From IMG/VR virus record IMGVR_UViG_3300028197_000002: DNA of 64,000 nucleotides, one strand, 5' to 3'. The position numbers were made by a program, and so were the translations under genes. How positions within the stretch are numbered: the stretch's first letter is position 1; each line of letters begins with the position of its first letter. Shown piece by piece: positions 1 through 64,000 of this stretch. Below the pieces are notes generated by a model. The model was given only the letters and a program-made list of their open reading frames with translations, had not been told where the DNA came from and did not search any database. Origin of the DNA: a virus. Its lineage: Duplodnaviria; Caudoviricetes.

Positions 1-176
1 GCTTTATTCTCTTCTAAAAGAATATGGATCTTTGAGCGGCTCTGAATGTCTTATAAACACCTCTTTAAATGGAAAGAACAAACCTATTTGCAGTAGCTTA
101 GAAGATGCTGTTTCTGATTTTAAAAACAAAGAAATTCAATTGATATCAATTAATGATAAATTAGATTCTTTGAAGT

Positions 177-959
177 TCATATGAAATAAATAGAATTTTT
201 AGTTTTTGTTTTCGGGTAGCATTTGTAAACGCTAGACAGACAGCGACCGGAGTCATTTTTTATATATACTGTTGATTTTATTCCAATAATTCCTGCCAAA
301 TGAGACATGCCGCTGTCGGCTCCAATGAATTCTTTGCATCTGTTCATTTTTTCTATCAAATAAGACAAGTCTCCTAAAAGATATTTTGATTCTTCTATTT
401 TGGTGTAAATTTTAATATAATATTCTTTTGATTCTTTTCCACCTATGTAAAAATAATTTTTGTATTTTAATATTTCTTTGATTTCTTTTTCTGAGTAATT
501 TTTTTTAACTCCTCTTTTGTCAAATTGAACTAAAGTTAATTCTTTTTTTCTATTTGTTTTTAGTTTTTGTTTTATTGGATTTGATTTTTTAATGTCAAAA
601 TTAAAATTTTCTATTAAGAATTTTGAAAATTGACTTATAAAAAAACAACCATTATACATTCCAATTTTACAATTACATTTATTTTTGAGCGAATAGTTGT
701 TTATTTCTTTTATTAGATCTACTGAGTTTATTGTAAATATATTTAATTTTTCGTTTATTGAAACCTTTTTAAATTCAAAGTGTTTGTTGAGTTTTTTGCA
801 TATCTCGCAAACTTTTTCGCCTTCTACTTTTAATTTAAAATTTATATTTTTTTGTTTTCCTAGATTTTCAAGGCAATACATGATAAAGATCACATCGCCA
901 ATTCCACATGTTTTTCCATTGAAGTTTTCTTCTTTTATACTAAAATATTTTGTAGGCAT
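177..959 (-). CDS. Glycosyltransferase family 9-like (heptosyltransferase-type) protein
   Basis: C-terminal FIGADSGMSHLAGIIG matches the GT9 DSGxxHLA motif; N-terminal GIGDVI. Confidence 0.65.
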   Translation of the reverse strand: MPTKYFSIKEENFNGKTCGIGDVIFIMYCLENLGKQKNINFKLKVEGEKVCEICKKLNKHFEFKKVSINEKLNIFTINSVDLIKEINNYSLKNKCNCKIGMYNGCFFISQFSKFLIENFNFDIKKSNPIKQKLKTNRKKELTLVQFDKRGVKKNYSEKEIKEILKYKNYFYIGGKESKEYYIKIYTKIEESKYLLGDLSYLIEKMNRCKEFIGADSGMSHLAGIIGIKSTVYIKNDSGRCLSSVYKCYPKTKTKNSIYFI

Positions 960-969
960 GTTGATATCT

Positions 970-1638
970 ATGATTACAAAAAAAACTCTTGTAGCACACC
1001 AACCGAGTTATTTGCCTTGGTTGGGTTATGTTGAAAAATTGAGAATTAGTGATGTCTTTGTGATAATGGATGATGTTAAATTTAGCAAGAATAGCATGTA
1101 TGCTAGAAATTACATAAAGATTAAAGATAAAAAAGTTCTTTTAACTGTCCCTACTTGTAATGAAGATAAAAATAAAAAGATAAAAGATGTGAAGATAGCA
1201 GGGGATTCTTGGAGGCAGAATCATTTAAAAAAAATAATTATGGCTTATTCTAAAAGTGATTTTTATGATTTATATTTTCCAAGAATTGAAAAAATATATT
1301 GTAAAAACTGGAAATGGATTTTCGATTTGAATTTAGAATTTTTATTTTTTATAAAAGATGTTTTTGAAATCAAATCTGATTTGAAAATTGCTAGTCATTT
1401 TGATTTTGAAGGAGATAAAAATTTAAGATTGGTAAATTATTGCAATCAATTTAATGCAAATGAGTATTTGTTTGGGGAAAATGGAAAAAACTATGTAGAT
1501 GAGAAGTTGTTTTCAGAGAATGGGGTGAGAGTAGGATTTCAGAAATTTAAATGTCCCAATGAAAGACTAAGTTTTTTAGATTATATTTTCAAATACAAAA
1601 TATATGATGGCTTTTTCGGAGTGATAGAATATGTTTAA
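970..1638 (+). CDS. WbqC-like protein (putative glycyl transferase for amino sugars)
   Basis: AHQPSYLPWLGYVEKL..SDVFVIMDDVKF..RNYI signature. Start moved from ORF-track 697 to ATG 970; ATG 958 is also possible. Confidence 0.85.
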   Translation: MITKKTLVAHQPSYLPWLGYVEKLRISDVFVIMDDVKFSKNSMYARNYIKIKDKKVLLTVPTCNEDKNKKIKDVKIAGDSWRQNHLKKIIMAYSKSDFYDLYFPRIEKIYCKNWKWIFDLNLEFLFFIKDVFEIKSDLKIASHFDFEGDKNLRLVNYCNQFNANEYLFGENGKNYVDEKLFSENGVRVGFQKFKCPNERLSFLDYIFKYKIYDGFFGVIEYV

Positions 1639-2221
1639 AAATGAAAAAGAGTATTTTGAAATTCACGAAAATAAAAAAGGAGCTTTGAAATTAGGATTTG
1701 GTTCCACATATAGTCAAAGTTATAGATATGGTGTTTTGACTAAAGACATAGATCTGAAAAACAAGAAGGCTATTCTTTTGGGATGTGGAGAGGGCGCAGG
1801 TGTTCCATTTTTACAATCTAAAGGATGTGAAGAAATTTATGGTTTTGACATATTGAAAAAAAATATAATTTCGGCTAAGAATAAATACCCTGATCTAGAG
1901 GAGAATTTTTTTGTTATCTCCAGAACAGAGGATGTGAGAAAAGTAGTTTCCACAACAGATTGGATTTTTGCTTCCGGAACTTGGAACGTAAAAACAAAAG
2001 AGAAATATTCTAAAATAGAAGGCCTTCTAGATTTAGTAGATATTGTTAGTGTTGGAATTGCCACTAATCTAACAACAAATGTTTCAGAGAGTGATGATTG
2101 TCATAATTTTTCTCAATTAAAAGTCTTGGAAATGTTTATGAATAAATTTAAAAAATGGAAATTAGATTATAGTTATTTTAAAAATGACTTTTCAATATTT
2201 GGAATTGATCCTATAAAATAA
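1631..2221 (+). CDS. Class I SAM-dependent methyltransferase
   Basis: ILLGCGEG motif I, YGFDI motif II, DWIFASGTWN; overlaps the wbqC-like stop. Confidence 0.75.
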   Translation: MFKNEKEYFEIHENKKGALKLGFGSTYSQSYRYGVLTKDIDLKNKKAILLGCGEGAGVPFLQSKGCEEIYGFDILKKNIISAKNKYPDLEENFFVISRTEDVRKVVSTTDWIFASGTWNVKTKEKYSKIEGLLDLVDIVSVGIATNLTTNVSESDDCHNFSQLKVLEMFMNKFKKWKLDYSYFKNDFSIFGIDPIK

Positions 2222-21871: not shown

Positions 21872-22507
21872 ATGAAGATACTATATCCCCCACACCCCCA
21901 CATCAGGATTTTAAAAAACAAATTAGATAATTATGAAATTGACGGAAAGTGGATTGCTCAAAGAAAATTTAATGGAACTAATGTTGTAGTAAACATTTCT
22001 AAACACGGGGAGATAGGCATTCTCACCAGACACGGAACTGCTCCTAAATTATTTTCTTTATCTCGATCTCACATTGATCAAATAAATTCTTTAAATTTTG
22101 AAAAAGGAAAAGAATATTGGTTAAACGGAGAGTTATTAGATCACAAGACTAAGAATCCAGCATATAAAAAGAAAATTGTTTTTTTTGATGTTTTATATGC
22201 TGGAAATTATTTGGTTCGTAAAATGAACCAAGATCAACGACTTCAATTATTAAGTAATATATGTAAAGATGCAAAAAATACAGAAAATGATATAGCTGCA
22301 AAATGTACTGAGGATATATGGACGGCTGAGAGTTGGAATCAAGATTTTAAATTTCACTTTGAAGAATTTATTGATAGAGATGAAATTGAAGGTTTGATTT
22401 TAAGGCGAAAAGACTCGTTCATTGATAACTTTGGATTTAAAGCACACGATGTTAATTGGATTGTAAAATGCAGAAAACCGCATTCAGGAGGAAATTATGA
22501 ATTTTAG
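21872..22507 (+). CDS. Stand-alone ATP-dependent ligase-type adenylation domain (RNA ligase/capping superfamily)
   Basis: Motif I QRKFNGTN, III NGELL, IIIa FFDVL, IV EGLILR, V VKCRK; no OB domain. Confidence 0.75.
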   Translation: MKILYPPHPHIRILKNKLDNYEIDGKWIAQRKFNGTNVVVNISKHGEIGILTRHGTAPKLFSLSRSHIDQINSLNFEKGKEYWLNGELLDHKTKNPAYKKKIVFFDVLYAGNYLVRKMNQDQRLQLLSNICKDAKNTENDIAAKCTEDIWTAESWNQDFKFHFEEFIDRDEIEGLILRRKDSFIDNFGFKAHDVNWIVKCRKPHSGGNYEF

Positions 22508-25426: not shown

Positions 25427-25432
25427 ATTCAT

Positions 25433-25505: not shown

Positions 25506-25563
25506 CTTCTGCTTTTAGAAGAAAGTAGATATTCACCTTTTAATAGAAAGTTGGTTTTTCATA

Positions 25564-37171: not shown

Positions 37172-37183
37172 GGAGCTTATGTT

Positions 37184-41582: not shown

Positions 41583-41903
41583 ATGTCGAAAGATTTAGAT
41601 TCAATTTTTGCAGATTGGTTTGCAAAGAAATCTGAGAAAAAAGTCAATAAAATTGAAAAAAAATGGATTAAGGGCAATGAGCCTAATGATCCCGATGAAG
41701 ATTGCGGTGGCGATCATTGGCATGTTAATGAAATGATGCATTGTGGAGAGGCGTATGATATGACTTGGGACAATGCTAAAGAAGCATTTTTAGCTGGGGC
41801 TAATGGAGAAGAATGGGAGATGAGTATGAGCAACTCTCTGTTTTGTGATTTAGATGAAGTTATTTCAGATGCTTATGAACAAGGTAAAAAGGAGAATGAA
41901 TAA
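41583..41903 (+). CDS. Hypothetical acidic protein
   Basis: ORF track; TAATG coupling to next gene. Confidence 0.6.
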   Translation: MSKDLDSIFADWFAKKSEKKVNKIEKKWIKGNEPNDPDEDCGGDHWHVNEMMHCGEAYDMTWDNAKEAFLAGANGEEWEMSMSNSLFCDLDEVISDAYEQGKKENE

Positions 41904-42406
41904 TGGGTTGGGAAGTTAAAAATAATCAGTTTTTTTGTAACACAAGCGATACTTTTTTCGGCCCTTATTTAGATGAGTCAATTTGGCCCGACATGGATTG
42001 GGGATGGGATCAACCTAAGACTAGACTTTTTTATGATTGTTTTTGTGATTTTCTTGAAACGAAACCCGTAAAAGGTTTAACAGGAGATGATCCGAGGAGC
42101 TTTTCCAAAAAACAGTTGGAAAAAGTAGTTGGTCTATGGGAAGAACTTTGGATGCGACTAGAAATTGCAGTTGCAGATTTGCCATCTACTGCAAAAGAAA
42201 TGGGACTAAACCTTTCGGATAACATTAGTTCTTCTGAGAATTTATTTCGTTATATTTACGATTCTCATCAAAAAGCCTTGAAGAAAGTTGCTAAAAAGAA
42301 AGTTGCTAAAAAGAAAGTTGCTAAAAAGAAAGTTGCTAAAAAGAAAGTTGTTAAAAAGAAAGTTGTTAAAAAGAAAGTAAAGAAAAAGACTGTTAGGAAA
42401 GGTTAG
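41903..42406 (+). CDS. Hypothetical protein with histone H1-like (KKVAK)n tail
   Basis: C-terminal KKVAK x4 plus KKVVK x2. Confidence 0.7.
   Translation: MGWEVKNNQFFCNTSDTFFGPYLDESIWPDMDWGWDQPKTRLFYDCFCDFLETKPVKGLTGDDPRSFSKKQLEKVVGLWEELWMRLEIAVADLPSTAKEMGLNLSDNISSSENLFRYIYDSHQKALKKVAKKKVAKKKVAKKKVAKKKVVKKKVVKKKVKKKTVRKG
42281..42378 (+). repeat. 15-bp coding tandem repeat
   Basis: AAGAAAGTTGCTAAA x4, AAGAAAGTTGTTAAA x2, plus a partial copy. Confidence 0.95.
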
Positions 42407-42738: not shown

Positions 42739-44466
42739 TTAAAAAAATGACAGATAGTCTATTGTTTTATTTGTTGTTATGTGAGGATTAACAAAATTTT
42801 CTTCAAAATACTTCTTGTTCTTATTAGTTTTTTGAAGACTTGTGTTCAAATCAAATTCTTTGAATTGTCTAATTATTTCTTGGCTGTTGTTTTTATGGTT
42901 TTTTATAACTAAAAAGTTTTCTAGACTATAGGCAGGATGCTCATATCTTATGTTTTTTTCACATACTATAACTTTGTGATTCATGTATAGGCTCTCTAGA
43001 ACCACAATTGGACAAGGGTCATATTTACTAGTTAAAAATAAATAGTCACATTCTTCTAGAATTGAGTGTGGATTTTTTAAAACATCTATAAACTTGAGGT
43101 TTGGTGCATTTGTTTCTATTTGACCACCAATCCATACAAAGTCATACTCTGGACAGGCTTTAGCTGTTTCAATAAATAGTTTGAAATTTTTTCTAGGAAT
43201 GGGAGTTCCACACATCCCAATTTTTACACGTTCGTTTTGTTTTTTTCTATTTTCATTTTCATCAATTTTCATAAGTCTATTTTTATGAATAAATTCTGGC
43301 ACAACAAAAGTTTTTCTTTTTATTTCTGAAGAAAAATTAAAATGATTTTGTATCTTATTTCTGATTATTTGTGCTACAAAAAATGTTGCTTTAGAGTTGG
43401 TGATTAAACTAAACAATCCTTGATCTGGTTCTTGCCAAAATTTCCTAAAATCTTTCATTATGCTTTCATAGGTTTCATGAAAATGATATATTGTCTTGTT
43501 TGCAAGATGTGAAAATGCACTGTCTCGAATCATAGGGCTGAGAGAATTGCTGTAGATGAGTTTAGGTTTATTTTTATTTAAAATATCTAATAAGTTGTTG
43601 GCATTGTAATAGAATGCATGTGTAATTTTTTTATTTAGGACAAAGCAATCACTGGGGTTAGGATTTAAGAACACTACATTTTCATGACCTTGATCCACCA
43701 GATAGTTGGCTAAGTCTTGAGCGAAGAATGGTGCTCCTGTCACTGTAGAAGAATGGTTCACAATGACTATAGCTTCTTTTGGCAACTTTATTATATTAGG
43801 TTTTTTTAACTCTTTAATTCTGAACCCAGCATCTCGGATAATTTGCCCCAATAACCTTTCTGCTAAATGTGTAAAAGAACCACCACTCACATACCCGTTT
43901 GGCATTTTATCATACCATTCATCTATAATTTCATTTGTTAAGATTTTTATTATAACTTTAAAATCAACCATGAACATTGTGCAAGATACAAATTCTAGGC
44001 TTTGAAGTTTGTTTTCATACCAACGTTTTTGCTTCAAAACCTGATATCCACACATTTTGTAATCACTTTGAATAAGTGTAGAGATATTTTTCTTTATAGT
44101 ATCATCTGATGAAATTAGAGAGTCTACTAATAAATTTCTTCTTTTAAAAAGCTGTTCTTCACTTTTTTTTCGATGGACGTTTTTAGTGTGTAATTTTATT
44201 AAATAACCATAATTTTTTTTTCGAATCTTTTTTAATGTTTTTAAGAATGGTCCAATGTCCATGCCTTTATTTGGATATTTGTCAATTTTTGCGTTTGGAA
44301 ATGATTTTAATATTTCATTAGAAATATCTTTATTTTCATCACATAAAGTGATGTAAAGATCAAATTTTGCTTTTAGCTTTTTGAGTTTTTCTTCAAAGTA
44401 CCACCAGTGGTCTGTGTAGTAGACATGTAGAACTATTGCTATTTTTGTGTTGGCATATTTTATCAT
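42739..44466 (-). CDS. Rhamnan synthesis F (RgpF)-like domain fused to a GT-B (GT4-like) domain
   Basis: IVLHVYY, NKGMDIGPF, KLHTK, HLAERL; C-terminal RKNF..F, LFLTSKYDPCPIVVLESL. Confidence 0.8.
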   Translation of the reverse strand: MIKYANTKIAIVLHVYYTDHWWYFEEKLKKLKAKFDLYITLCDENKDISNEILKSFPNAKIDKYPNKGMDIGPFLKTLKKIRKKNYGYLIKLHTKNVHRKKSEEQLFKRRNLLVDSLISSDDTIKKNISTLIQSDYKMCGYQVLKQKRWYENKLQSLEFVSCTMFMVDFKVIIKILTNEIIDEWYDKMPNGYVSGGSFTHLAERLLGQIIRDAGFRIKELKKPNIIKLPKEAIVIVNHSSTVTGAPFFAQDLANYLVDQGHENVVFLNPNPSDCFVLNKKITHAFYYNANNLLDILNKNKPKLIYSNSLSPMIRDSAFSHLANKTIYHFHETYESIMKDFRKFWQEPDQGLFSLITNSKATFFVAQIIRNKIQNHFNFSSEIKRKTFVVPEFIHKNRLMKIDENENRKKQNERVKIGMCGTPIPRKNFKLFIETAKACPEYDFVWIGGQIETNAPNLKFIDVLKNPHSILEECDYLFLTSKYDPCPIVVLESLYMNHKVIVCEKNIRYEHPAYSLENFLVIKNHKNNSQEIIRQFKEFDLNTSLQKTNKNKKYFEENFVNPHITTNKTIDYLSFF

Positions 44467-44485
44467 TTATTTCTATATATCTTTT

Positions 44486-45214
44486 ATGGAAAGTTTTAAC
44501 AATTGGCTTATAAGAGAGCAAAGTAGCAAAAAAACAGTTTTATCTGTATTTGACTTCGATGGAACAATAGCAAATGTCCCAGAAAAACCTAGTTCAGATG
44601 ATAAGAAGCATCATTGGGATGGAAAAGATTGGTGGGGTTCGTCTGCTTCTTTAGAGCCTCCTTTCTATGATGGTTGGGTCAATGATGAAGTTGTGAGTGC
44701 TTTTAAAAAAGCCAAATCTGATCCTGAAACACATGCTATTCTTCTCACTGGAAGAAGAGGTGTTAATTCTCATGCTGTAAGGACTGTTCTTCGCAATCAA
44801 GGTCTTCATGGCAGAAGGATTATTCCTGATTCTAATCAAAAAGAAAAAAATAAGTACAAAGATCTTATAGATCAAAAAAAAGATATTCCTCATAAAATGA
44901 ATCATGATTCTCATGATGAGTATTTTAGTGGAGATCATAGAACCGAGCCTAAGTATCCTATTGATCCTAATAGTAAAAAAGGCAAACCAGCAGGTGATAC
45001 AATGAGTCACAAGACTTATGTAGTTAAAAATTTAATGCATGATGGGATCAGAGAAGTTCACTTTTGGGATGATAGAGATGATCATGTTGACAATTGGATC
45101 AAGTTGGCAAAAGAACTAAAAGAAAAATATTCTAATTTAAAAATAATTTTACATAAAGTAAATCCTCCTAGTTCTTCAAAACAGAAAGCCAAGATTGATC
45201 ATATTAATATTTAA
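44486..45214 (+). CDS. HAD-family phosphatase (Swiss-Army-knife RNA-repair type) with T4-type leader
   Basis: VFDFDGT, WW, LLTGRR, FWDDR; N-terminus MESFNNWLIRE. Confidence 0.75.
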   Translation: MESFNNWLIREQSSKKTVLSVFDFDGTIANVPEKPSSDDKKHHWDGKDWWGSSASLEPPFYDGWVNDEVVSAFKKAKSDPETHAILLTGRRGVNSHAVRTVLRNQGLHGRRIIPDSNQKEKNKYKDLIDQKKDIPHKMNHDSHDEYFSGDHRTEPKYPIDPNSKKGKPAGDTMSHKTYVVKNLMHDGIREVHFWDDRDDHVDNWIKLAKELKEKYSNLKIILHKVNPPSSSKQKAKIDHINI

Positions 45215-45225
45215 AGGATATAACA

Positions 45226-45597
45226 ATGAGTTACACAGCACTTGTTTTAGACAAAGATTCTAGAGATAAGTTGATTTCTAGATTCAAAGATGACATCCCA
45301 GAAGGATGGAAAGTTATTGCACATCACATGACAATAAATATGGGAGATGCAGAAGGCGGTCCTGCTGAAAATATGGTTGGGGATGAAGCGCCTTTAACTG
45401 TAAAGACATTTGCTAAAGATGATTTAGTTATGGCGGTTGGAGTTGTTTCGCCTGTTCCAAGTAAAAATGATATAAAACACATCACTTTAGCCGTCAATAG
45501 AAAAGAAGGAGGGAAGCCTTTTTTTAGCAACAAGTTGAAAGATTGGAATTCAGTTGCCCCTCTGGTTTTAAAAGGTCTTGTCAAGGTTGTTAATTAG
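45226..45597 (+). CDS. 2H phosphoesterase (tRNA-ligase cyclic phosphodiesterase-like)
   Basis: Two HxT motifs: HHMTINMG and KHITLAVN. Confidence 0.8.
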   Translation: MSYTALVLDKDSRDKLISRFKDDIPEGWKVIAHHMTINMGDAEGGPAENMVGDEAPLTVKTFAKDDLVMAVGVVSPVPSKNDIKHITLAVNRKEGGKPFFSNKLKDWNSVAPLVLKGLVKVVN

Positions 45598-45651: not shown

Positions 45652-46536
45652 TTAAGTATCGCATTGCCCAAGGATTTTTTTATCGGCGTGAGTTGAGTTT
45701 TGTTGGTTATATTTAAAATTGTTTAAAATCATTAAAGTTTCTTTTATCCAATCTTGTTTCGAATTTGTTTTTTTCATAACTAATGAACGAAATCCTTCTG
45801 GAGGATGTTCATCATTATCAGAAAACCACAACAACTCTGGATTTACCAACAAATTAACAAGATTATTTTTTTTATAATAATCATAAAATTCTGGAACTTT
45901 AAAAGGATGATTTTCTTCGTAAGCAACACCAAGAAGCATAGGCCAAGCTATTTCTAAAGTCATAGAAAATTGATAATAATTATCGTTATAAGAAAGAACG
46001 TTGAAAATATGTTGCCAAAAACTTTTTGGGAATCTTTTAATAGTCTCGCTTTTCACTATGCATTGTGAAGATGGAGGAAAACAAACAAATGATGGTGGTG
46101 TCATTACTATATTTAAATTCATGTAATTCCACATTTCTTTAAACTGATATAGGTAGTTGTTTCTTTTTTCAAAATTATAAATGGCAGTAGTTTTTGAATT
46201 CCAATGATTCTCTATATCTCCATTCAAATTATAAAAATGATCCTTCAATTTAATTTTTTTTAATTTTTCAAAATTATGTGACATTGAAAATTGTTGATGG
46301 AATGAATTTTCGTGACCATGTATAAATCCTACATATTCAGGCATTTCATTCCAACGAGTCAAAATATAATGAATATAAGATCTAAATTCCTCCGCCCCCA
46401 CATTTTCAATTTTTTCAAAATTCTTTATTGGCAAGTTCTTTTTAGATTTGGAAACTACCAAATAATCAATCCCAGATTTTTCTATCCAAGAGATTTCTTC
46501 ATTATAATGAGATGAAACTATTATCAAGTCGTTCAT
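45652..46536 (-). CDS. DUF3431-like protein
   Basis: IVSSHYNEEISW, NVGAEE..YIHYI, FIHGHENSFHQ. Confidence 0.8.
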   Translation of the reverse strand: MNDLIIVSSHYNEEISWIEKSGIDYLVVSKSKKNLPIKNFEKIENVGAEEFRSYIHYILTRWNEMPEYVGFIHGHENSFHQQFSMSHNFEKLKKIKLKDHFYNLNGDIENHWNSKTTAIYNFEKRNNYLYQFKEMWNYMNLNIVMTPPSFVCFPPSSQCIVKSETIKRFPKSFWQHIFNVLSYNDNYYQFSMTLEIAWPMLLGVAYEENHPFKVPEFYDYYKKNNLVNLLVNPELLWFSDNDEHPPEGFRSLVMKKTNSKQDWIKETLMILNNFKYNQQNSTHADKKILGQCDT

Positions 46537-46590: not shown

Positions 46591-46649
46591 TTAATATTAA
46601 AAACAAAAGTGATTTAAGTTTTTGACTTTAGAAGTATTAATTATTATTT
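46591..46649 (+). repeat. Direct repeat copy 1
   Basis: 46599-46649 is identical over 51 bp to 47874-47924; includes the ferredoxin last codon and stop. Confidence 0.92.
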
Positions 46650-47021
46650 GGCGGCTTTGAGTTCTGCCAAATTCTGCGCCGTTTCGACGAGGCGATCCCA
46701 ATTTTCCTCTATGTACGCCGGAGGCCCACCCATATCGGCCTGTGCCACTGCTATCTCTTCAGTAGGAACCATCTCGATAGCATCCCAAGGACAAACTTTA
46801 ACATCATACATTTTACCCTTATTACCGGGAACATGAATGCATTGTTCACAACCTATACAAGTAGATAGATCAATCTCGCACCATTGAGTTACTCCCTGTT
46901 TTATCTGGAATATACAATCGACAGGGCATACTTCTAAACAAGCCTCACAACCGGTGCAATTATCTGCCTGAATGATTGCTAATTCTTTTGGAATCTTTTT
47001 TCTCACTGCTTTTTTTGCCAT
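46644..47021 (-). CDS. 2[4Fe-4S] dicluster ferredoxin
   Basis: CTGCEACLEVCP and CIGCEQC...VCPWD; visibly GC-richer than flanks. Confidence 0.92.
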   Translation of the reverse strand: MAKKAVRKKIPKELAIIQADNCTGCEACLEVCPVDCIFQIKQGVTQWCEIDLSTCIGCEQCIHVPGNKGKMYDVKVCPWDAIEMVPTEEIAVAQADMGGPPAYIEENWDRLVETAQNLAELKAAK

Positions 47022-47161: not shown

Positions 47162-47833
47162 ATGTATGACGCAATTGTGATTAGTGACATTCATTTAGGA
47201 AGTAGCGTTTGTGAAGTCAAACAGCTTTATGCTTTTTTGAACAGTGTGGCATGTGATACTAAAAAAATTATTATTAATGGTGACTTTTTTGACAATTTAA
47301 ACTTTAGTCGTTTGAAAAAAAGTCATTGGGATGTTTTGTCATCTCTCAGAAGGATGAGTAAAGATGTTGATATTATTTGGATTAGAGGAAATCATGATGG
47401 AGAGGCCGAAATAATTTCGCATTTAATAGGTTTGGATTTTAAAGACGAGTATTCATTTTTTAGCGGCAGAAAAAATATTCTTTGTCTCCATGGTGATAAA
47501 TTTGATGATTTTATTTTCAAATATCCAAAAACTACTAAAGTCGCAGATTTTATTTACAGAACTATTCAAAGATTTGATAAAAATTTTCTTCCCAGATTAA
47601 TTAAACACAGATCAAAAATGTACCTTAGATGCAATGAAAACATGATTTTGAATTCTGTGAGATATGCGAAACAAAAAGGAGCAGATATAGTTTGTCTTGG
47701 CCATACCCATCATGCTGTTATTGACAAAAAAGATAAGGATGTGTGGTATTACAATTCTGGATGTTGGACTGAAAAACAATGCTCTTATCTGTCTATTAAA
47801 GATGGTGTAGTTGAGTTGAATTATTTTTCGTAA
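47162..47833 (+). CDS. Metallophosphoesterase (LpxH/UDP-2,3-diacylglucosamine hydrolase-like)
   Basis: ISDIHLG, INGDFFD, RGNHD, LHGD, LGHTH, YNSGCW. Confidence 0.88.
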   Translation: MYDAIVISDIHLGSSVCEVKQLYAFLNSVACDTKKIIINGDFFDNLNFSRLKKSHWDVLSSLRRMSKDVDIIWIRGNHDGEAEIISHLIGLDFKDEYSFFSGRKNILCLHGDKFDDFIFKYPKTTKVADFIYRTIQRFDKNFLPRLIKHRSKMYLRCNENMILNSVRYAKQKGADIVCLGHTHHAVIDKKDKDVWYYNSGCWTEKQCSYLSIKDGVVELNYFS

Positions 47834-49706: not shown

Positions 49707-50063
49707 ATGTCGAAGACTGCTGAAAAGATTAACAAGAGTAAGATGGTTCGTGATTATCTTGCCGCCAATAATGATGCTGATACAAATAGTGTTGTAGAGC
49801 ATTTTAAGAGTGAAGGGATTGAGATTAACAAGCAATTTGTTTATCAAACCCGAACTCATATCAAGAACCCAAAGAAGCGTTCTTCTACCAATCCGAAAGC
49901 GAAGTCTTTCGCTAAGGCTAAGGCTAAAGCTAAAACTTCTTCTAAGCCAAAGATGGATCATTATGATTCTTTGGTTGCTGCCAAGAGGTTGCTTGAGTCT
50001 GTTGGGGGTGATTTGGGTCAAGCAAAAAAGAGTCTAGACACTCTTACCAAACTCATTTCGTAA
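49707..50063 (+). CDS. Small basic nucleoid-type protein (Planctomycete-like family)
   Basis: NKSKMVRDYL..GIEINKQFVY..AKAKAKAK..DSLVAAKRLLESVGGDLGQAKKSL. Confidence 0.65.
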   Translation: MSKTAEKINKSKMVRDYLAANNDADTNSVVEHFKSEGIEINKQFVYQTRTHIKNPKKRSSTNPKAKSFAKAKAKAKTSSKPKMDHYDSLVAAKRLLESVGGDLGQAKKSLDTLTKLIS

Positions 50064-50913: not shown

Positions 50914-51930
50914 ATGATTATTTCTTTCGAAAGGAAACCTATGAATAATTTAGTTATTTCCCATAATAAATTATCAAAATCTGATGTTTTTGAAATCTCT
51001 CAAGAATTATCTGCTGTAAATTTAATTCTTAAAAAATATCATCAGAAGATGGCGACCAGAAAAGGCAGAAAAGGTTATCGAGACAGTGAGGGGAATAGTT
51101 TTACCGTTATTGATCTATTAAACTTAATTTATAAAAATAGAAAAGAAGATTGTATTAAAGTAAAAGGAATTTTAATTGATTGTGAAGATGTAGAGAAACT
51201 ATGCAATATTAAAGAAAAAGAATATTTACTTTTAAGCAACTATTCTCGTATGTTTTACGCTTTGTCTAAAAAACATTTTCTTTCTACTTCCATGTATGAC
51301 ATGGAAGATTTACAGAACGAATGTATAACTGCTTGTTTAAAGGCAATGTATGGATATGATGCTGAAACAGCAGGCAGGCAGCAAGTCGCTTCTCTTTTCA
51401 CATTTCTCTATAGGTCTGTGAATAATCATTTAATTAAGCTGAGTCGGACTATGCTTTCATCTCTAGACCGCAAAGCAGTAAAAATCAAATGTAAATTTAT
51501 GGACTTGAAAAATGAAAATCCCAATCTTACTTTTGATGATTTGGTTTCTAAATTAAGTTTATCTCCAAAAGAATTGAAAATATTAACCTGTGCTTTATCT
51601 TCAACCGTTTATCGAGAATCAGATTGCAATGGGGAAGATAAATCCTTGATTATTAATCAAGTTGTTGCAGAAAAAGAAAAAGAGTTGGAATTAGTAGAAT
51701 CTACTGTTATGAAAAACATGGGAGAAATTATTTTTACTTTATCTGAATTGGAGAAAGAAGTTTTACGGGGGTATTTGAATGAGAAATACCCTAGTGGAAA
51801 AAAGTCAAATCGAGGAATTGGCAAATTTGCAAAAAATTTAATTAATCCAAAAACTAAAAAACCATACAGTAGAATGGCTATAAGTTATGCTTGGAAGCGG
51901 GTTCAGGAAAAAATTAAAAAGGCTGCGTAA
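50914..51930 (+). CDS. Divergent sigma70-like factor
   Basis: Region-2-like DMEDLQNECITACLKAMYGYD..FTFLYRSVNNHL; region-4-like LSELEKEVL..YSRMAISYAWKRVQEKI; ends KKAA; start may be 50941. Confidence 0.65.
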   Translation: MIISFERKPMNNLVISHNKLSKSDVFEISQELSAVNLILKKYHQKMATRKGRKGYRDSEGNSFTVIDLLNLIYKNRKEDCIKVKGILIDCEDVEKLCNIKEKEYLLLSNYSRMFYALSKKHFLSTSMYDMEDLQNECITACLKAMYGYDAETAGRQQVASLFTFLYRSVNNHLIKLSRTMLSSLDRKAVKIKCKFMDLKNENPNLTFDDLVSKLSLSPKELKILTCALSSTVYRESDCNGEDKSLIINQVVAEKEKELELVESTVMKNMGEIIFTLSELEKEVLRGYLNEKYPSGKKSNRGIGKFAKNLINPKTKKPYSRMAISYAWKRVQEKIKKAA

Positions 51931-51943
51931 AAAAAAATAAAAG

Positions 51944-51954
51944 TAGTTTGCGGT
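51944..51954 (+). promoter_or_regulatory. TAGTTTRYGGT motif 4
   Basis: TAGTTTGCGGT upstream of the RuvB-like gene. Confidence 0.65.
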
Positions 51955-51980
51955 ATTTTTACCCTGAAGGAGAAAAACTA

Positions 51981-53120
51981 ATGCTTGAAAATTCATCCCA
52001 AGTCCAAAATGAGTTACTATTTAGAAAATTGACTGTTGAAGAAAGAAAATGGAAAATCTCCAGAAAGAATCCCGAATGCCCATTAAATAAATTCATTGGC
52101 AATCCCAAGGCTATCAGAAGGCTCGCTAGGGCTGCTTTTTCTGCTATGGGCAATAGGAATAGAGATTGTTCTGATTACTCTCTAGCTGTTTGTGGGCCTC
52201 CATCAACGGGTAAGACTTATTTGACGAAATTATTTGCTAAAACTATAGGTTTGCCATTAGTTGTAATCGAGCCTCAAACAGTAAAAAGAGTACAAAATAT
52301 TTTTGATGAAATTGCTTTGACTTGTCGTGAATTTTCTTGTGATGACATAGTTCAAGCTGGAGAATTGACGCTTAAGGCGGATGATAAAGGAAAGTTCTCG
52401 TTACCTCCAGTAATTGTTTTTATAGATGAAGTTCATAATCTTAAGTCAAATGTGGTTCAAGGTCTTTTGAAAGCAACAGAACCTAATGATAGGATTATGA
52501 TTACGGAAGAAGGTCAGCAAATTGCTACAAATAAAGTTTGTTGGATGATTGCTACAACAGATCGTGGAGATTTGTTTGATGCTTTCGACACTAGGTTTCA
52601 AAAAGTTAATCTTAGACTATATTCTAAAGACGAAATGGCTAAGATTGTCCAAATGAATAATTCTGATTGGGATATGGATGTTTGTAGGTTAGTTGCGACA
52701 TATAACCCTATTGTCCCAAGAGAAGCGATTGCTTTTGCTAAAGACATGCGCGTTGAACATGAAATGAATCCATCTGAGTGGCTGAATGTTGCCAAAAGAA
52801 CAGCGGAGGATCATGGAATAGATGAATTTGGAATGACCTATGCCAGATTGAATGTTCTTAAAGCATTAGGGCGATCAACGATGTCAGCATCACAGATGCC
52901 ATTTGTTGTTCATGTTAAAGAAGATGAATTGAAAAAGTATATTATGCCTCCTCTACTTGCAAGGACTCCTGACCAACAAGTTCCTTTTGTAACTGTTTGT
53001 AGCAGAGGATATTCTATAACAAAGGCTGGACTTGCAGAGTTAGACAAGAGAGGGATTTCTCATAGGGGACTTAAAGCAATGCCGGAGTCGGTCGCAGAAA
53101 TGTTTACGGATGCTGCATAA
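51981..53120 (+). CDS. RuvB-like AAA+ ATPase (Holliday junction helicase family)
   Basis: GPPSTGKT, FIDEVH, IATTDRG..FDTRF, RLYSKDE, GIDEFG, SRGYSIT winged-helix tail; ends DAA. Confidence 0.8.
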   Translation: MLENSSQVQNELLFRKLTVEERKWKISRKNPECPLNKFIGNPKAIRRLARAAFSAMGNRNRDCSDYSLAVCGPPSTGKTYLTKLFAKTIGLPLVVIEPQTVKRVQNIFDEIALTCREFSCDDIVQAGELTLKADDKGKFSLPPVIVFIDEVHNLKSNVVQGLLKATEPNDRIMITEEGQQIATNKVCWMIATTDRGDLFDAFDTRFQKVNLRLYSKDEMAKIVQMNNSDWDMDVCRLVATYNPIVPREAIAFAKDMRVEHEMNPSEWLNVAKRTAEDHGIDEFGMTYARLNVLKALGRSTMSASQMPFVVHVKEDELKKYIMPPLLARTPDQQVPFVTVCSRGYSITKAGLAELDKRGISHRGLKAMPESVAEMFTDAA

Positions 53121-53555: not shown

Positions 53556-53781
53556 AACAAAATCACTTGTTGATTACATGAAAAAAAGATCAACCCTAGA
53601 GGGTAGAAATTGGAACATTCCTGATTCTTATCTGGAAGAAATGTTTGTTCAAAAAGGGACTAGAATTTTTTTTGGTGTGGTTTTAGATGATTTAGGAAAT
53701 ATGTTAGAAGATAAAAAGAATAAAGATTTTTTCTTGTGTTGGCAACGAATGGAAGCAGAGCGTACTTTTGATGCAAGGTAA
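53542..53781 (+). CDS. Small hypothetical protein
   Basis: ORF track, overlapping gene chain. Confidence 0.55.
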   Translation: MQIIKTKSLVDYMKKRSTLEGRNWNIPDSYLEEMFVQKGTRIFFGVVLDDLGNMLEDKKNKDFFLCWQRMEAERTFDAR

Positions 53782-53965
53782 AAAAGTATATTTTAATACG
53801 AAGTCTCAATATGGAGTGGAAACCGTAGATGAATTAAGCAAGAAAGATTTTATTGATTTCGCAGCGTTTAATGCCGAAGTCAAAAGATTGTCTAAAGAAT
53901 ATACTCTTGCTGGTATGTCGGTTTATGTTAGTCAAAGATCATGTAAAGAATGGGGTCGGCAATGA
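53768..53965 (+). CDS. Small hypothetical protein
   Basis: ORF track; ATGA coupling to the ligase. Confidence 0.55.
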   Translation: MMQGKKVYFNTKSQYGVETVDELSKKDFIDFAAFNAEVKRLSKEYTLAGMSVYVSQRSCKEWGRQ

Positions 53966-55245
53966 GTTTTAAAGAATTAGAGAAATTTGTAGAAAAACTT
54001 AAATCCACAACAAGTACGCTTGATAAAGTAGAAATAATTAAAAATTGCAATTCTGATTTTATAAAAAATATTATTTTATATACATACCATCCTTTCAAGC
54101 AGTATCATGTTACTAGCAAAAATTTAAAGAAACGAAATGATTTGTTGGGTGTGCAAATGTGCCATTCTGATTTTTTTTCTTTACTAGATGGTCTTTCAAG
54201 TAGAGAAATTACTGGTCACGATGCAATTAAATCTGTAAATGCTTTTGTTTCAAACAATTCTGAGTATGAAGAACTTATTCATTGCGTAATTGATAAAGAT
54301 TTAAAAACTAGAACTGCTGCGAAGTTGATTAACAAGGCTTTGCCTAATTTCATTCCTGAATTTAGTGTTGCTCTTGCTGATGTCTATGCACCTAAATTAG
54401 TAAGCTGGAAAGATGAATGGTATGTCTCTAGAAAGCTAGATGGAGTTAGGTGTATCGCTGTTATAGACGATTTAGGAAACCCTACGCTCTATTCCAGAAC
54501 AGGAAAAGAATTTCATACCCTTGATGTTGTTGCTTCTGATGTTCGCAAACTAAAACTTAGAAATCAAGTTTTAGATGGAGAACTATGTCTGGTGGATGAA
54601 GATGGGAATGAAGACTTTCAAGGAATAATGAAACAGTTAAAGAAAAAAGATCATACGATTGCCAATCCATCCTATAAGGTATTTGATTTTTTAAATTTAG
54701 ATGAATTTAATTCAAAGGTTGGAGAGAGAAATCTTTCTCAAAGATTGAAATGTTTGTCAGAGACATTCCCAGAGGATTCAAATTCAACATTGTCTGTCTT
54801 GGAGCAAGAGATTGTTCAAGATGATGGTCATTTTGAAAATTGGATTTCAAAATCAAAGGAAAATGGTTGGGAAGGTTGTATGCTTAGAAAAAATACGGCA
54901 TACAAAGGAAAACGAAGCAAGGATTTGCTCAAATGCAAGTCGTTTTATGATAACGAATATGAAGTTCTGTCAACAGAGACAGGCCAATTTAGATATGTAA
55001 AAGATGGTTCTGAAACTGAAGAAGAAATGCTTTCTGCTGTCATTATTAAGCATAAAGGCCATGAAGTTCGTGTAGGGAGTGGTTGGAGTGTTGAGCAAAG
55101 ACAAGAGTATTTTAAGAACCCAGAAGGAATTATTGGAAAATTAATCTGTGTTCAATACTTTGAAGAAACTAAAAATCAATCTGGCGGGATTAGTTTGAGA
55201 TTTCCTACTATTAAGCATGTTTACGGAAATTCAAGAGATTTATAA
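53962..55245 (+). CDS. ATP-dependent DNA ligase
   Basis: SRKLDGVRC, LDGEL, VFDFL, EGCMLR, LKCK, OB-fold C-terminus with SLRFP. Confidence 0.95.
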   Translation: MSFKELEKFVEKLKSTTSTLDKVEIIKNCNSDFIKNIILYTYHPFKQYHVTSKNLKKRNDLLGVQMCHSDFFSLLDGLSSREITGHDAIKSVNAFVSNNSEYEELIHCVIDKDLKTRTAAKLINKALPNFIPEFSVALADVYAPKLVSWKDEWYVSRKLDGVRCIAVIDDLGNPTLYSRTGKEFHTLDVVASDVRKLKLRNQVLDGELCLVDEDGNEDFQGIMKQLKKKDHTIANPSYKVFDFLNLDEFNSKVGERNLSQRLKCLSETFPEDSNSTLSVLEQEIVQDDGHFENWISKSKENGWEGCMLRKNTAYKGKRSKDLLKCKSFYDNEYEVLSTETGQFRYVKDGSETEEEMLSAVIIKHKGHEVRVGSGWSVEQRQEYFKNPEGIIGKLICVQYFEETKNQSGGISLRFPTIKHVYGNSRDL

Positions 55246-58398: not shown

Positions 58399-59493
58399 AT
58401 GTCTGTTGTAGAATCTAAAGTTGTTGAGTCTATTAGTCTTTATTTCAATGCTGGTAGTAGCGATAAAGTTTACAATGCTTCTATTGAAGAATTTGATGGC
58501 AAGTATGTCGTCAACTTTGAATACGGACGCAGAGGTAGTGCTTTGAAATCAGGAAGTAAGACTTCTAGCCCTGTTTTGTTACAGGATGCTAAGATTGCTT
58601 ATGAAAAATTGATTAAAGAAAAGACTAAAAAAGGTTATCAAAAATTAGAAGGTGCGTATGATAAGCAGATTCTAGTTTCTGATTTGCCTGAAACTCAAGT
58701 TGTTGATTCTAAATGCGTATTGTTAAACCCAATTACAGGAGATGAAGTTAATGTTTATTGTGACAATCCTGATTGGATTGTTCAAGAAAAAATGGATGGA
58801 GTTAGATTTATGCTCCATAGGCAAGGTGGAAAGGTAACGTCTTATAATAGACGAGGGGTTTACGCTAACATTCCGGTAGACATTTACAATTTGACAAAAG
58901 ACTTGAAAGAAGATTTTTTCATTGATGGAGAACTTGTTGGAGAAGTCATGTATGTTTTTGACATGCTAGAATATAAAGGTAAAGACTATAGGGAAAGTTC
59001 GTTTTCCGAAAGGTTTAAGCAACTAAGAAGTTTTGTGAAAAGTTTGCCTAATCAAGATTGTATTGTTTTGACCAAGACCGCAAATAAAAACAAAATTAAA
59101 TTTGTAAATGAACTTGAGGAAAACAATAAAGAAGGAGCCGTATTCAAGAATAAAAACGCATCTTATTATGTAGGACGACCTGCTAGTGGAGGTGATTACG
59201 TCAAATTTAAGTTTTACAGCACTTGTAGTTGCGTTGTAAAAGAACTCAATGGAACTAAAAGAAGTGTTTTTCTTGAATTATTCAAAAACAAGAAAGCTGT
59301 AAAAGCAGGAAAGGTTACTATCCCTGCAAACTTTGATATTCCAGAAGTAGGACAAGTAGTAGAAGTTCGATACTTATATGCTTATAAGCAGTCAGGTGCA
59401 TTGTATCAGCCTGTTTACTTGGGCGTGAGAGATGATATTGTTCCAAGTGAATGCCAGCAGGCTCAATTAAAATATAAGTCGGAAGAAGATTAA
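58399..59493 (+). CDS. WGR domain plus ATP-dependent DNA ligase
   Basis: SDKVY..YGRRG..KEKTKKGY (WGR); QEKMDGVR, IDGEL, VFDML, EGAVFK, VKFK; EVRYLY. Confidence 0.88.
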   Translation: MSVVESKVVESISLYFNAGSSDKVYNASIEEFDGKYVVNFEYGRRGSALKSGSKTSSPVLLQDAKIAYEKLIKEKTKKGYQKLEGAYDKQILVSDLPETQVVDSKCVLLNPITGDEVNVYCDNPDWIVQEKMDGVRFMLHRQGGKVTSYNRRGVYANIPVDIYNLTKDLKEDFFIDGELVGEVMYVFDMLEYKGKDYRESSFSERFKQLRSFVKSLPNQDCIVLTKTANKNKIKFVNELEENNKEGAVFKNKNASYYVGRPASGGDYVKFKFYSTCSCVVKELNGTKRSVFLELFKNKKAVKAGKVTIPANFDIPEVGQVVEVRYLYAYKQSGALYQPVYLGVRDDIVPSECQQAQLKYKSEED

Positions 59494-60658: not shown

Positions 60659-60663
60659 ATTGC

Positions 60664-61464
60664 ATGATAATTAAAGATAAAAAATTTCTTTGGACTCATC
60701 CGCTAAAAATGGGTGGAACAAGTTTCAGAACAGTTTTAGTAACTCTGTTTAGTGATGGCAACACTCATGCAAGTCAAGGTGGTGGCAAGATAACTCTTAA
60801 TGATGGTCATAGATCATTAAAAAGTCTGTTGAGCATAGACCCCAAATACAAAAAATTTTACAAGGTTAGTTTATGTAGAAATCCGTGGGACAGAGTAGTT
60901 AGTTTCTGGTATCACAATAAGCGTCATATGGTATTGAATCGTGATACTTCTAAAGACTTAATAAATTCAAAATGCCAAGGATTTGCTCCGAGAAATATAG
61001 ATCAAATATTTTGGCAAAGTTGCACTTTTGAAGAATATTTGCAAAGCAAATACATAAATGATCTTTGTCCAAAAAAGTTTTATGTTTTTAATAACATTGA
61101 AGTAGATGAATATATTCGATACGAGCATTTTGAACTTGACATAGCGAATGTATTAAAAAAATTAGGTGTAAAAAGTAGCGAATATAAGCTACAGAACTTT
61201 AGTCACGATACTGCTCGAAAATGGGGAGTAGATGATTATCGAACGTACTACAATGACGACCAAGCTGAATTTATAGGCGAAAAATTTAAATATGAAATTA
61301 AAAAATTTAATTATTTGTTTGACAATGGCTGTAGAAAAAACTCTGAATCATATAAAAATGAATTAAAATCACGCATACGCCAAAACAAAGAAAAAATACA
61401 AAAACTGCAAAAACAAGTAGCTGTTGATGAATCTAAATTAAACAAGGAATACAAAGCAATATGA
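60664..61464 (+). CDS. Sulfotransferase family 2 protein with C-terminal coiled coil
   Basis: WTHPLKMGGTS, CRNPWDRVVSFW, IRYEHF. Confidence 0.82.
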   Translation: MIIKDKKFLWTHPLKMGGTSFRTVLVTLFSDGNTHASQGGGKITLNDGHRSLKSLLSIDPKYKKFYKVSLCRNPWDRVVSFWYHNKRHMVLNRDTSKDLINSKCQGFAPRNIDQIFWQSCTFEEYLQSKYINDLCPKKFYVFNNIEVDEYIRYEHFELDIANVLKKLGVKSSEYKLQNFSHDTARKWGVDDYRTYYNDDQAEFIGEKFKYEIKKFNYLFDNGCRKNSESYKNELKSRIRQNKEKIQKLQKQVAVDESKLNKEYKAI

Positions 61465-62299: not shown

Positions 62300-62695
62300 A
62301 TGAGAACAGCATTTATTTTATTATTTTTAGCATTGTTTCTTGGTTGTGGCAAAAGTTTGCCAGAAATTGAAAGCGTTTCAAATGTTGATGGCAAAATTTT
62401 AATGCCAAATGGTCGAGTTTTAAAACATGGAAGGTTGTTGTTTATTCCAACAGAGCATTATGATGTTGCTAGAAGTTTATCAGTAGACATAAAAGATGAT
62501 GGAAGTTTTAAATCAGAAGATAATTTATATGAAATAAATTATAAAATTATGGTTCTTACTGGAAGTGGAAAAGAACGCAGGTATATTAAAAAGTATGTTC
62601 CTGAAAAATATTATGATCGAGAAGAAGAAGACTCTGATTTATTTATAAATCCTGAAGTTCAAGCAGATAATTTGGTTTTAAAAATGACCAAATAA
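62300..62695 (+). CDS. Lipoprotein, carboxypeptidase-regulatory-like (Planctomycete-type)
   Basis: LFLGC lipobox; DGKI..G..L..GRLLFIP..DGSF pattern. Confidence 0.65.
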   Translation: MRTAFILLFLALFLGCGKSLPEIESVSNVDGKILMPNGRVLKHGRLLFIPTEHYDVARSLSVDIKDDGSFKSEDNLYEINYKIMVLTGSGKERRYIKKYVPEKYYDREEEDSDLFINPEVQADNLVLKMTK

Positions 62696-62764: not shown

Positions 62765-62989
62765 ATGCCAAGGGGGAAGAAAAGCAGTTGGACTCATGCA
62801 ATTTATTGCGATTATGGGAAGGCAGATGCAAGAATAATTAGACTTAGCTACAGTTCTGTTTCTGCTAAAAATGCTTGGGAAAAAATTTATAAATCTTATA
62901 GTCATAATAACTGGCGATGTTGGCAAGTAACAAAGCGTGGCAAAGTTATAAGAGATAGCAATAAGATTAAAGAAAAGGTACTAAATTAA
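62765..62989 (+). CDS. Small basic hypothetical protein
   Basis: GGAGG RBS. Confidence 0.6.
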   Translation: MPRGKKSSWTHAIYCDYGKADARIIRLSYSSVSAKNAWEKIYKSYSHNNWRCWQVTKRGKVIRDSNKIKEKVLN

Positions 62990-63346
62990 ATGATGCCAGT
63001 TCCCTACACCGAATGTATTACTTATCCTGATGAATATTACGGACATGATAAAATATTAAGGATAGAGCAATCGTATTATTTAACAGAATACATAGAGGAA
63101 AAAGCTCATAAATTAATAAATTTAGGTGGTAGATTTTTAATTAAGCGTGAAGAAGTTGCAAAGAACAAGTCTGCGAAGAAAACTCCACCGACTTATGGTT
63201 TAAATACTCTTATTTTTTCTACAGATTTAAGTGAGATGTTGTTGCCAGATCATACTAAAATCATATTGAGTAGCGAGAAAGAAACTCGCAAGAATTTTAT
63301 AGTTTTAATTAATTCTTCTTACCACAATATTTTTAAAAATGTATAA
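62990..63346 (+). CDS. Hypothetical protein
   Basis: ORF track. Confidence 0.5.
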   Translation: MMPVPYTECITYPDEYYGHDKILRIEQSYYLTEYIEEKAHKLINLGGRFLIKREEVAKNKSAKKTPPTYGLNTLIFSTDLSEMLLPDHTKIILSSEKETRKNFIVLINSSYHNIFKNV

Positions 63347-63545
63347 ATGGACAGAAATTAAAAAGTGGGCTAAAGAAAACAACCTTAGTATTTCTAAGAC
63401 TCCCAAAATAGATGAATTTATCTGGGGAGACAAGAAATATAGCAATTTAAATAAATTAGTCGCTGACTTGTATAATGAACTAACTAATAATGTTCATTTA
63501 GAGCATCAAAAAAACTATAAAAAAAACAATAGTAGTTCATGGTAG
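63339..63545 (+). CDS. Small hypothetical protein
   Basis: ORF track, overlap coupling. Confidence 0.5.
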   Translation: MYKWTEIKKWAKENNLSISKTPKIDEFIWGDKKYSNLNKLVADLYNELTNNVHLEHQKNYKKNNSSSW

Positions 63546-63583
63546 GTTTATAGAAACAACTATTTTCGCTATCGGAGTTTTTG

Positions 63584-64000
63584 ATGAGATATGGTCTTTG
63601 TTGTATTGCTTTAGGTTTAGAGCCAAAGAAATTCAGAAAAATGACATACAAGCGATTTAGTAGTTTAGATCGTGATGAGGCGTTATCTATTTTAGGAGAA
63701 CGCATTCTCAACAATATGGAGGTGACAAATGCTAGTATTAGCTACTGTTCAAAACATGATTACTGTTACCGTATTAGTAGTGACCTATTTCCTCTTGTTA
63801 CCTATCGTGCTGCTAATCTCAGTCTTTCTGATCTACCTCAACATGAGCGAATACTACAAGAAATAGAAAGCATAGGCGACAACATAGAGGAAACAAGAGT
63901 CAGAGTTAGTTGTCATCCAAGTGAGTTTAACGTATTGGCTTCTACAAATGAAGATGCTGTAAATCGTACCATTAGAGAGTTAAATTTCTACAGTGATTTT
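63584..64000 (+). CDS. uvsE: UV DNA damage endonuclease (UvsE/UvdE), truncated by the window edge
   Basis: Hand translation MRYGLCCI..YRISSDLFP..RVSCHPSEFNVLAS; absent from the ORF track because no stop occurs in the window. Confidence 0.9.
   Translation, partial: MRYGLCCIALGLEPKKFRKMTYKRFSSLDRDEALSILGERILNNMEVTNASISYCSKHDYCYRISSDLFPLVTYRAANLSLSDLPQHERILQEIESIGDNIEETRVRVSCHPSEFNVLASTNEDAVNRTIRELNFYSDF

Follow-up and report, generated by a model that had tools for sequence, protein, structure and literature searches.

The window analysed here is a stretch of 64,000 nucleotides of the virus record IMGVR_UViG_3300028197_000002 (Duplodnaviria; Caudoviricetes). It is likely to come from a T4-like marine jumbo phage that has not been cultivated, and to represent the part of its genome given to accessory functions and host takeover. 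The most probable host is a marine bacterium of the phylum Planctomycetota and class Planctomycetia (Planctomycetaceae or Pirellulales). Planctomycetota is a very probable host phylum because several genes in the window have their counterparts, as copies or close relatives, almost exclusively in this phylum. Seven lines indicate it, namely a ferredoxin, the NKS..IR.YL protein family (NKS family), a sigma factor, a free RNA polymerase alpha C-terminal domain (alpha-CTD), a phosphoribosyl pyrophosphate (PRPP) synthetase, ClpX and a lipoprotein. Some of these are host-type genes carried by the phage, including a ferredoxin gene exchanged with a Planctomycetaceae lineage and the older PRPP synthetase and ClpX genes, and others are phage-encoded forms of regulators that are otherwise nearly confined to Planctomycetota (the signature-bearing sigma factor, the free alpha-CTD and two NKS proteins).

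An earlier sequence-only reading of the window had proposed an AT-rich jumbo phage of Planctomycetota from six protein families. Five of the six (sigma factor, NKS proteins, stand-alone alpha-CTD, ferredoxin and the lipoprotein at 62300) were borne out. Best matches did not come from other phyla, and the window showed no core cellular genes; ClpX and PRPP synthetase, which it had not listed, also indicate Planctomycetota.

Ferredoxin shared with a marine Planctomycetaceae genome

The strongest host result is a two-cluster 4Fe-4S ferredoxin gene on the minus strand (46644-47021), with 92.8% amino acid and 82.5% nucleotide identity to a gene of the marine Planctomycetaceae metagenome-assembled genome (MAG) UBA12365. 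In a scan of one genome per species (185,579 species), about 70 full-length matches at 61-70% identity were obtained, nearly all of them labelled Planctomycetota; the few labelled Chitinophagaceae have sequences identical to planctomycete ones, and the next group, Acidobacteriota, reached 46% over a partial alignment. The closest locus is a 6-kb contig of UBA12365 with a guanine-plus-cytosine (GC) content of 49%, on which the ferredoxin gene sits after a lysA-like gene, as it does in related marine MAGs, where dprA-like and prfB-like open reading frames (ORFs), named by eye from their translations, come next. The UBA12365 gene is taken to be chromosomal since this lysA-like context is conserved in the related MAGs.

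The phage and UBA12365 ferredoxins have a 5-residue deletion in common and are nearest neighbours in the tree. The two genes differ at 6, 4 and 56 sites in the first, second and third codon positions, respectively, indicating that the exchange was not very recent and that purifying selection has acted on the protein from then on. At 43%, the GC content of the phage gene exceeds the window median of 31%, and the UBA12365 ferredoxin is 75% identical to its relatives compared with 85% for the lysA-like neighbour. On these sequence comparisons, the ferredoxin gene was exchanged between the phage and a Planctomycetaceae lineage.

Sigma factor and free alpha-CTD of Planctomycetota type

The sigma-70-family factor on the plus strand (37139-38077) contains regions 2 and 4 according to Pfam (PF04542, 24.5 bits with a cut-off of 24; PF04545, 25.3 bits with a cut-off of 24.1). 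Its residues 66-299 align to sigma factors of Blastopirellula marina and three marine Planctomycetaceae MAGs with E values of 4e-21 to 2e-23 (75-84 bits over 230 residues in these four Planctomycetota genomes), whereas the genomes of six other phyla gave about 1e-8 and 32-35 bits, in region 2 only. The signature of the phage protein is LLTREQE..LFRKFNYLK, and LLTREQE..LFR.FNY is common to the Planctomycetota sigma factors, which have LLTREQEYHLFRKFNYLKH or LLTREQEVWLFRKFNYLKYK at the position of the phage LLTREQEFSLFRRFNYFKYR.

The stand-alone alpha-CTD gene (35402-35686, plus strand; PF03118, E 1.8e-9) has its best matches in those same marine Planctomycetaceae MAGs and in B. marina, at 40-43% identity. 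Its homologues in these four genomes are also stand-alone genes, since their frames are only 99-111 aa long. At E <= 1e-6 none of the 302 control genomes carried a match, and within the Planctomycetota sample 2 of 151 genomes did. In UBA12365 (L210 1444-1764) and B. marina (L231 1414-1713), a highly conserved stand-alone alpha-CTD of about 100 aa was observed, separate from RpoA; the conserved sequence in these two genomes reads ..MSTAEIGL.VRTTNCLEE.GIFTV.DLLNCTR.DLLSISNFGEKTL..

The NKS..IR.YL family

Two members of the NKS family are encoded on the plus strand, a small protein of 118 aa (49707-50063) and a longer paralogue carrying the NKS-family domain (31105-31788; profile match E 1.4e-10). 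An exhaustive search of 1.8 billion representatives returned 177 homologues of the small protein at E <= 0.001, a clear family. The species genomes used for the ferredoxin (596 billion bases) were also scanned with a hand-made degenerate DNA motif for NKS[QKE]AIRDYL, for which about one chance match is expected. This gave 25 loci, 22 of them in Planctomycetota; 21 of those 22 were confirmed by the profile (E 1e-17 to 1e-51), and the three matches in other phyla failed the same check, so that all 21 verified members belong to Planctomycetota. Among sampled Planctomycetota genomes, 5 of 201 matched the profile and had as many as nine copies of the family each, compared with 0 of 201 Pseudomonadota and 0 of 201 Bacteroidota. 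The family is phylum-specific yet patchy inside Planctomycetota, and no conserved neighbours of the NKS genes were found in that phylum.

The AlphaFold model of the 118-aa protein (mean predicted local distance difference test, pLDDT, 81) begins with an N-terminal domain of three helices, continues through a disordered basic linker and ends in a helical hairpin. Against the PDB it gave weak helix-turn-helix matches only, all with E above 1. The model suggests a small DNA-binding protein with a helix-turn-helix-like N-terminal domain.

ClpX, PRPP synthetase and lipoprotein

The window encodes a ClpX with zinc finger (34023-35291, plus strand; Pfam), for which 10 of the 12 top-ranked loci are Planctomycetota and which is 56% identical to the proteins of marine Planctomycetaceae MAGs. 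A split supported at 97% in the ClpX tree places the phage clade together with Planctomycetota.

The PRPP synthetase (ribose-phosphate pyrophosphokinase; 29400-30476, plus strand; Pfam) is of Planctomycetaceae type. All three of its organism-named bacterial homologues, at 50-51% identity, are from Planctomycetota (a MAG, Calycomorphotria hydatis and Thalassoroseus pseudoceratinae, the last two being Planctomycetaceae isolates). The fourth organism-named match, at 47%, is a Candidatus Thorarchaeota MAG, and a study of Lac Pavin reported a phage for which gene taxonomy gave the odd assignment Thorarchaeota (PMC9875498); both labels could be due to contigs of a related phage that were binned wrongly. 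The species-genome-wide scan found no relatives of the PRPP synthetase.

The lipoprotein (62300-62695, plus strand), with a putative CarboxypepD_reg-like beta-sandwich, scored 0.94 in the Atlas comparison of language-model features to Planctomycetota clusters. In a pairwise comparison it was 28% identical (E 2e-11) to a B. marina lipoprotein ORF that lies directly after a pseudopilin-like gene with DUF1559 and N_methyl domains. The phage gene has no DUF1559 neighbour, and its lipobox, LGCG, was read from the sequence. Its structural model is poor (pLDDT 61), with fold matches to CarboxypepD_reg-like proteins. A word-indexed protein search with the single sequence retrieved nothing outside its own phage clade, and just 1 of 251 Planctomycetota genomes gave a match.

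Phage identity, genome size and relatives

A protein of the window is encoded letter for letter, and in identical gene order, on a 259,238-bp JGI contig and on a 111-kb ENA contig. The larger contig, which carries the window genes, exceeds the 200 kb of a jumbo phage genome. A diverged relative (L001) keeps at least 12 window genes, including csrA, the small ligase, ClpX, both sigma-like genes, the AAA+ ATPase and UvdE; it also has two NKS-family genes, one of them 39% identical to the longer paralogue, and homologues of the proteins at 48627 and 50151. The L001 sigma protein is present on contigs of up to 471 kb.

Among GenBank phages, the best matches of the AAA+ ATPase (50%), ClpX (53%) and CsrA (66%) all belong to LR756511.1, an uncultured phage of 595 kb whose genes include one for a capsid protein of the T4 Gp23 type (E 5e-87). 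No nucleotide-level similarity was found between LR756511.1 and the window, no GenBank phage matched 24 kb of the window by megablast, and exact-word and protein scans of a viral contig collection found no close relatives. When the Gp23 of LR756511.1 was searched against metagenomes, the best 80 loci (75-91% identity) did not include the contig of the present genome. The putative jumbo-phage assignment rests on contig sizes and relatives and not on virion genes of this genome.

The phage family phrog_3704 is represented by the protein at 38090-38752 (plus strand; E 1e-46). Members of this family were found in 114 phage records, most of which are T4-like cyanophages, pelagiphage HTVC008M and Flavobacterium phage immuto. 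The placement of the protein at 36688 in Uroviricota clusters also speaks for a phage. The N-termini MEFKDWLNE (40628-41248, minus strand) and MESFNNWLIRE (44447-45214) were seen to resemble the capsid-targeting sequence of T4. The T4-like motifs named by the sequence-only reading are represented by these two N-termini, phrog_3704 and the Gp23 of the distant relative, and by nothing beyond them.

Marine and seawater metagenomes from 16 studies contained window DNA. Among them was one viral-metagenome run in which the share of sampled words was 0.31; in another viral run it was 0.18, which is below the evidence level of the tool.

Host assignment and alternative explanations

Several observations weigh against a Planctomycetota phage. 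One is composition: the window has 30% GC, the closest MAGs have 47-50%, and the remaining ferredoxin loci of Planctomycetota have a median of 66%. The window thus lies 17-40 GC points below the candidate hosts and is not host-like. Such a gap is possible, since the GC content of phiKZ is about 37% and that of its host about 66%. No CRISPR-type (clustered regularly interspaced short palindromic repeats) match was found between 20 kb of the window and five Planctomycetota genomes. The protein at 36688, the one of the six families that did not hold up, has its nearest clusters in viruses (Uroviricota) and matched none of five Planctomycetota genomes, and the protein at 27460 has no relative in five Planctomycetota genomes or in the species-genome pattern scan, which detects close relatives only. 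The TilS-like protein described below shows no phylum preference, its best match being a weak one in Bacteroidota (E 4e-6). The phage ClpX clade stands beside Planctomycetota, not inside it, on a long branch, and the ferredoxin transfer could have run in either direction. The three MAGs nearest to the phage in ferredoxin and alpha-CTD gave no match to the NKS profile. The host signals therefore do not all come together in one lineage, and the host call stops at class level. Finally, no capsid, portal or terminase gene lies within the window. Among the misfits, neither 36688, 27460, TilS and the patchiness of the NKS family nor the spacers and GC content indicate another phylum.

Two DNA matches to marine Planctomycetaceae MAGs were discarded. 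A 27-nt match (53738-53764) is attributed to chance, as it lies inside a gene, in another frame and without a repeat array. The other, 81% over 72 nt to two MAGs (42274-42345), falls in low-complexity sequence encoding the lysine-rich (KKVAKKK)n C-terminal tail of the protein at 41903-42406.

The GC content fits far better with a jumbo phage of an AT-rich marine bacterium (SAR11, Flavobacteriia or SAR86) in which the Planctomycetota-like genes would be leftovers of occasional cross-phylum transfer. The weak TilS-like match and the occurrence of phrog_3704 in phages of Pelagibacter, Flavobacterium and cyanobacteria also point that way, but phrog_3704 is a phage-to-phage family that is uninformative on host, and no tested gene has a strong best match outside Planctomycetota. 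Seven independent genes indicate one phylum, among them a sigma factor and an alpha-CTD that need matching host machinery, and we regard an AT-rich host as unlikely. Another member of the Planctomycetes-Verrucomicrobia-Chlamydiae (PVC) superphylum or a neighbouring lineage, such as Verrucomicrobiota, could have these families in common with Planctomycetota; the phage ClpX lies at the base of Planctomycetota, and the phylum-restricted searches covered Planctomycetota as the one PVC phylum. Both all-phyla scans, however, returned nothing but Planctomycetota for the NKS family and for close ferredoxin homologues, and the organism-named PRPP synthetase homologues are Planctomycetaceae, which makes such a host very unlikely.

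The lack of a virion gene in 64 kb and a long glycan-biosynthesis island, which would suit a cell or a giant virus, could instead mean that the window comes from a cell with an AT-rich genome, from a giant plasmid-like element or from a eukaryote virus. This is extremely improbable, given that the window has no rRNA, ribosomal or other core cellular genes, contains phage families, has genes in common with LR756511.1, a phage with a Gp23 capsid gene, and is represented in a viral-metagenome run at 0.31 of sampled words. A T4-like jumbo phage of Planctomycetota is the reading adopted in what follows.

Composition, RNA genes and expression signals of the window

The GC content is 27-33% throughout the 64 kb, in agreement with the AT-richness noted earlier, and about 75 ORFs on both strands fill the window. 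ARAGORN and Rfam identified two tRNAs, a tRNA(CAT) (25433-25506) and a tRNA-Asn (GTT; 35329-35401, plus strand), and the Rfam scan gave no rRNA or other family in the window; the sequence-only reading had likewise noted tRNAs and no rRNA. Likewise, no ribosomal-protein or other core cellular family was found among about 70 window ORFs compared with Pfam, nor in the flanks.

The tRNA(CAT) lies 7 nt downstream of a gene encoding a TilS-like PP-loop ATPase (24752-25506 for the pair, plus strand; PF01171, E 1.4e-20). Its anticodon stem is not initiator-like, and ATA makes up 40% of the isoleucine codons of the window, or 30 per 1000 codons, compared with 11 per 1000 in a small sample of four marine Planctomycetaceae genes. 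The adjacency, the non-initiator stem and the ATA usage suggest a candidate lysidine synthase and tRNA-Ile2 pair that would offset the gap in codon usage, and the tRNA could be either Ile2 or an elongator Met.

Sigma-70 promoters, which had been reported from the sequence, are not enriched: 75 promoter-like sites were counted against 81.9 +/- 9.0 in shuffled sequences. The claim of bacterial ribosome-binding sites stood in part, with a Shine-Dalgarno-like motif upstream of 15 of 58 ORFs (5.6 expected at random positions) and no motif at most ORFs. Many ORF starts without a Shine-Dalgarno motif (e.g., 27460, 31872 and 45652 on the minus strand) have a TATAAT-like box a few bases before the ATG, and may belong to leaderless messages or T4-late-type promoters.

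Ligases, repair functions and other genes

The three ligase-family genes noticed earlier were all recovered on the plus strand. They encode a small nucleotidyltransferase of the RNA-ligase/DNA-ligase family (21872-22507; PF09414, E 1.1e-7; PF01068, E 1e-6; 64% identity in relative L001), an ATP-dependent DNA ligase (53950-55245; PF01068, E 2.2e-22; the OB domain PF14743; phrog_114, E 5e-81) and a WGR-domain ATP-dependent ligase (58399-59493; PF05406 and PF01068). A csrA gene on the minus strand (30480-30740) is 73% identical to the PF02599 CsrA of L001, and a CsrA occupies the equal position in L003. A second sigma-like protein followed by a RuvB/clamp-loader-like AAA+ ATPase (the latter at 51948) is encoded at 50914-53120 on the plus strand, and both are kept in relatives. 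The 5' part of a gene for the UV damage endonuclease UvdE (63581-64000, plus strand; PF03851, E 9.7e-16; 52% identity in L001) extends past the end of the window.

Pfam also detected a metallophosphoesterase and HAD and cyclic-phosphodiesterase domains of RNA-repair type. An RNA-repair-like set can be assembled from 44447-45597, 21872-22507, 47162-47833 and 58399-59493, with HAD_SAK_1 phosphatase/kinase-like, tRNA_lig_CPD-like (E 2.7e-4), RNA-ligase-like, WGR-ligase and metallophosphoesterase members, and it may counter tRNA-cleaving defences of the host. The 422-aa protein at 26048-27316 has about six repeats of a module of about 50 residues (W.. E.. L .. .. KG.P.I.GRS..AIR.K...L.L) and a weak GcrA-like match (E 1e-3), and may be a DNA-binding protein with multiple helix-turn-helix units. 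The strongest composition outlier is 27460-27840, with a GC content of 43% and a third-position GC content (GC3) of 44% against window medians of 31% and 24%; its product has a basic C-terminal tail.

Glycan-modification island

The first third of the window (1-21804) is a glycan-modification island defined by its Pfam families, which include carbamoyltransferase, WbqC, PIG-L, DegT aminotransferase, PhyH, LRR and ATP-grasp as well as methyltransferases, sulfotransferases, DUF5672 and fucosyltransferase-like proteins. The island extends at least 10 kb upstream of the window (L111 1-10000). With further pieces at 35702-36433, 42739-44466 (minus strand), 45652-46536 (minus strand) and 60664-61464, the glycan set totals at least 30 kb, which is very large for a phage; at least four sulfotransferases, two carbamoyltransferases, epimerases, RgpF, DUF3431 and a PIG-L deacetylase are among its members. 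These enzymes may modify the virion, the host envelope or DNA.

Proposed mode of action and significance

From the presence and relationships of these genes, we infer how the phage might take over its host. The host-type sigma factors would associate with the RNA polymerase core of the host and turn it towards phage promoters; reliance on the host enzyme is proposed because the sigma factors and alpha-CTD imitate the host's own. The free alpha-CTD and the NKS proteins would compete with or imitate the host copies, and CsrA and ClpX would reset translation and proteolysis. The TilS-like enzyme and the adjacent tRNA(CAT) would make AUA-rich phage messages readable in a host in which AUA is rarer.

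Planctomycetota are abundant on marine particles and algae and have an unusual cell biology; to our knowledge, they have almost no known phages and no phage model. A tentative further claim, which we hold to be somewhat short of probable, is that the phage represents the first lineage of marine megaphages whose host is firmly established as Planctomycetota, that its takeover proceeds by mimicry of the transcription apparatus of that phylum (sigma factor, free alpha-CTD and NKS nucleoid-like proteins), and that its own tRNA-Ile2 and lysidine synthase bridge a GC gap of at least 17 points. If true, it would open the first route to phage genetics in a phylum without any. A cosmopolitan jumbo phage, found in 16 studies and with a well-supported host call, is a concrete target for isolation or Hi-C, and its sigma factors, free alpha-CTD and NKS proteins form a set of phage proteins probably acting on planctomycete transcription. 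For this clade, composition-based host prediction would fail badly.

Comparison with known phages

Beyond the three proteins noted above, LR756511.1 resembles the window in having a DegT aminotransferase (48%) and a 50151-type protein (40%). It differs in its larger genome of 595 kb, and the NKS-family gene was not found there. The marine T4-like myophages (cyanophages such as Syn30 and P-HM1, HTVC008M and immuto) have phrog_3704 in common with the window at 30-43% identity, and the window has capsid-targeting-like N-termini of T4 type, but their genomes are 147-190 kb, their hosts belong to other phyla and they are without the Planctomycetota-type genes.

Some lake phages have been predicted to infect Planctomycetes from gene content and CRISPR in the Lake Fargette enrichment, which includes fragments of >300 kb (PMC9040852), and in Lac Pavin (PMC9875498); a search of one literature library for phrases such as "infect Planctomycetes" returned PMC9040852 only. 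Like the present phage, the lake phages are metagenome-derived and, at Fargette, large. Compared by description only, they differ in being freshwater phages, and the papers give neither a host-type set of sigma factor, alpha-CTD and NKS proteins nor a genome of 30% GC (PMC9040852, PMC9875498). Moraphages, another lineage of large aquatic phages, have hosts in Bacteroidota and are distinct from the present group (PMC12619734). Large phages predicted for Planctomycetes are already published, and what is unusual here is the number of independent host signals and the host-type transcription set.

The phiKZ-like jumbo phages of Pseudomonas have a GC content about 30 points below that of their host and rely little on host transcription specificity, and phiKZ brings its own multisubunit RNA polymerases. 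In contrast, the present phage has sigma factors and an alpha-CTD, implying that it would use the core enzyme of its host.

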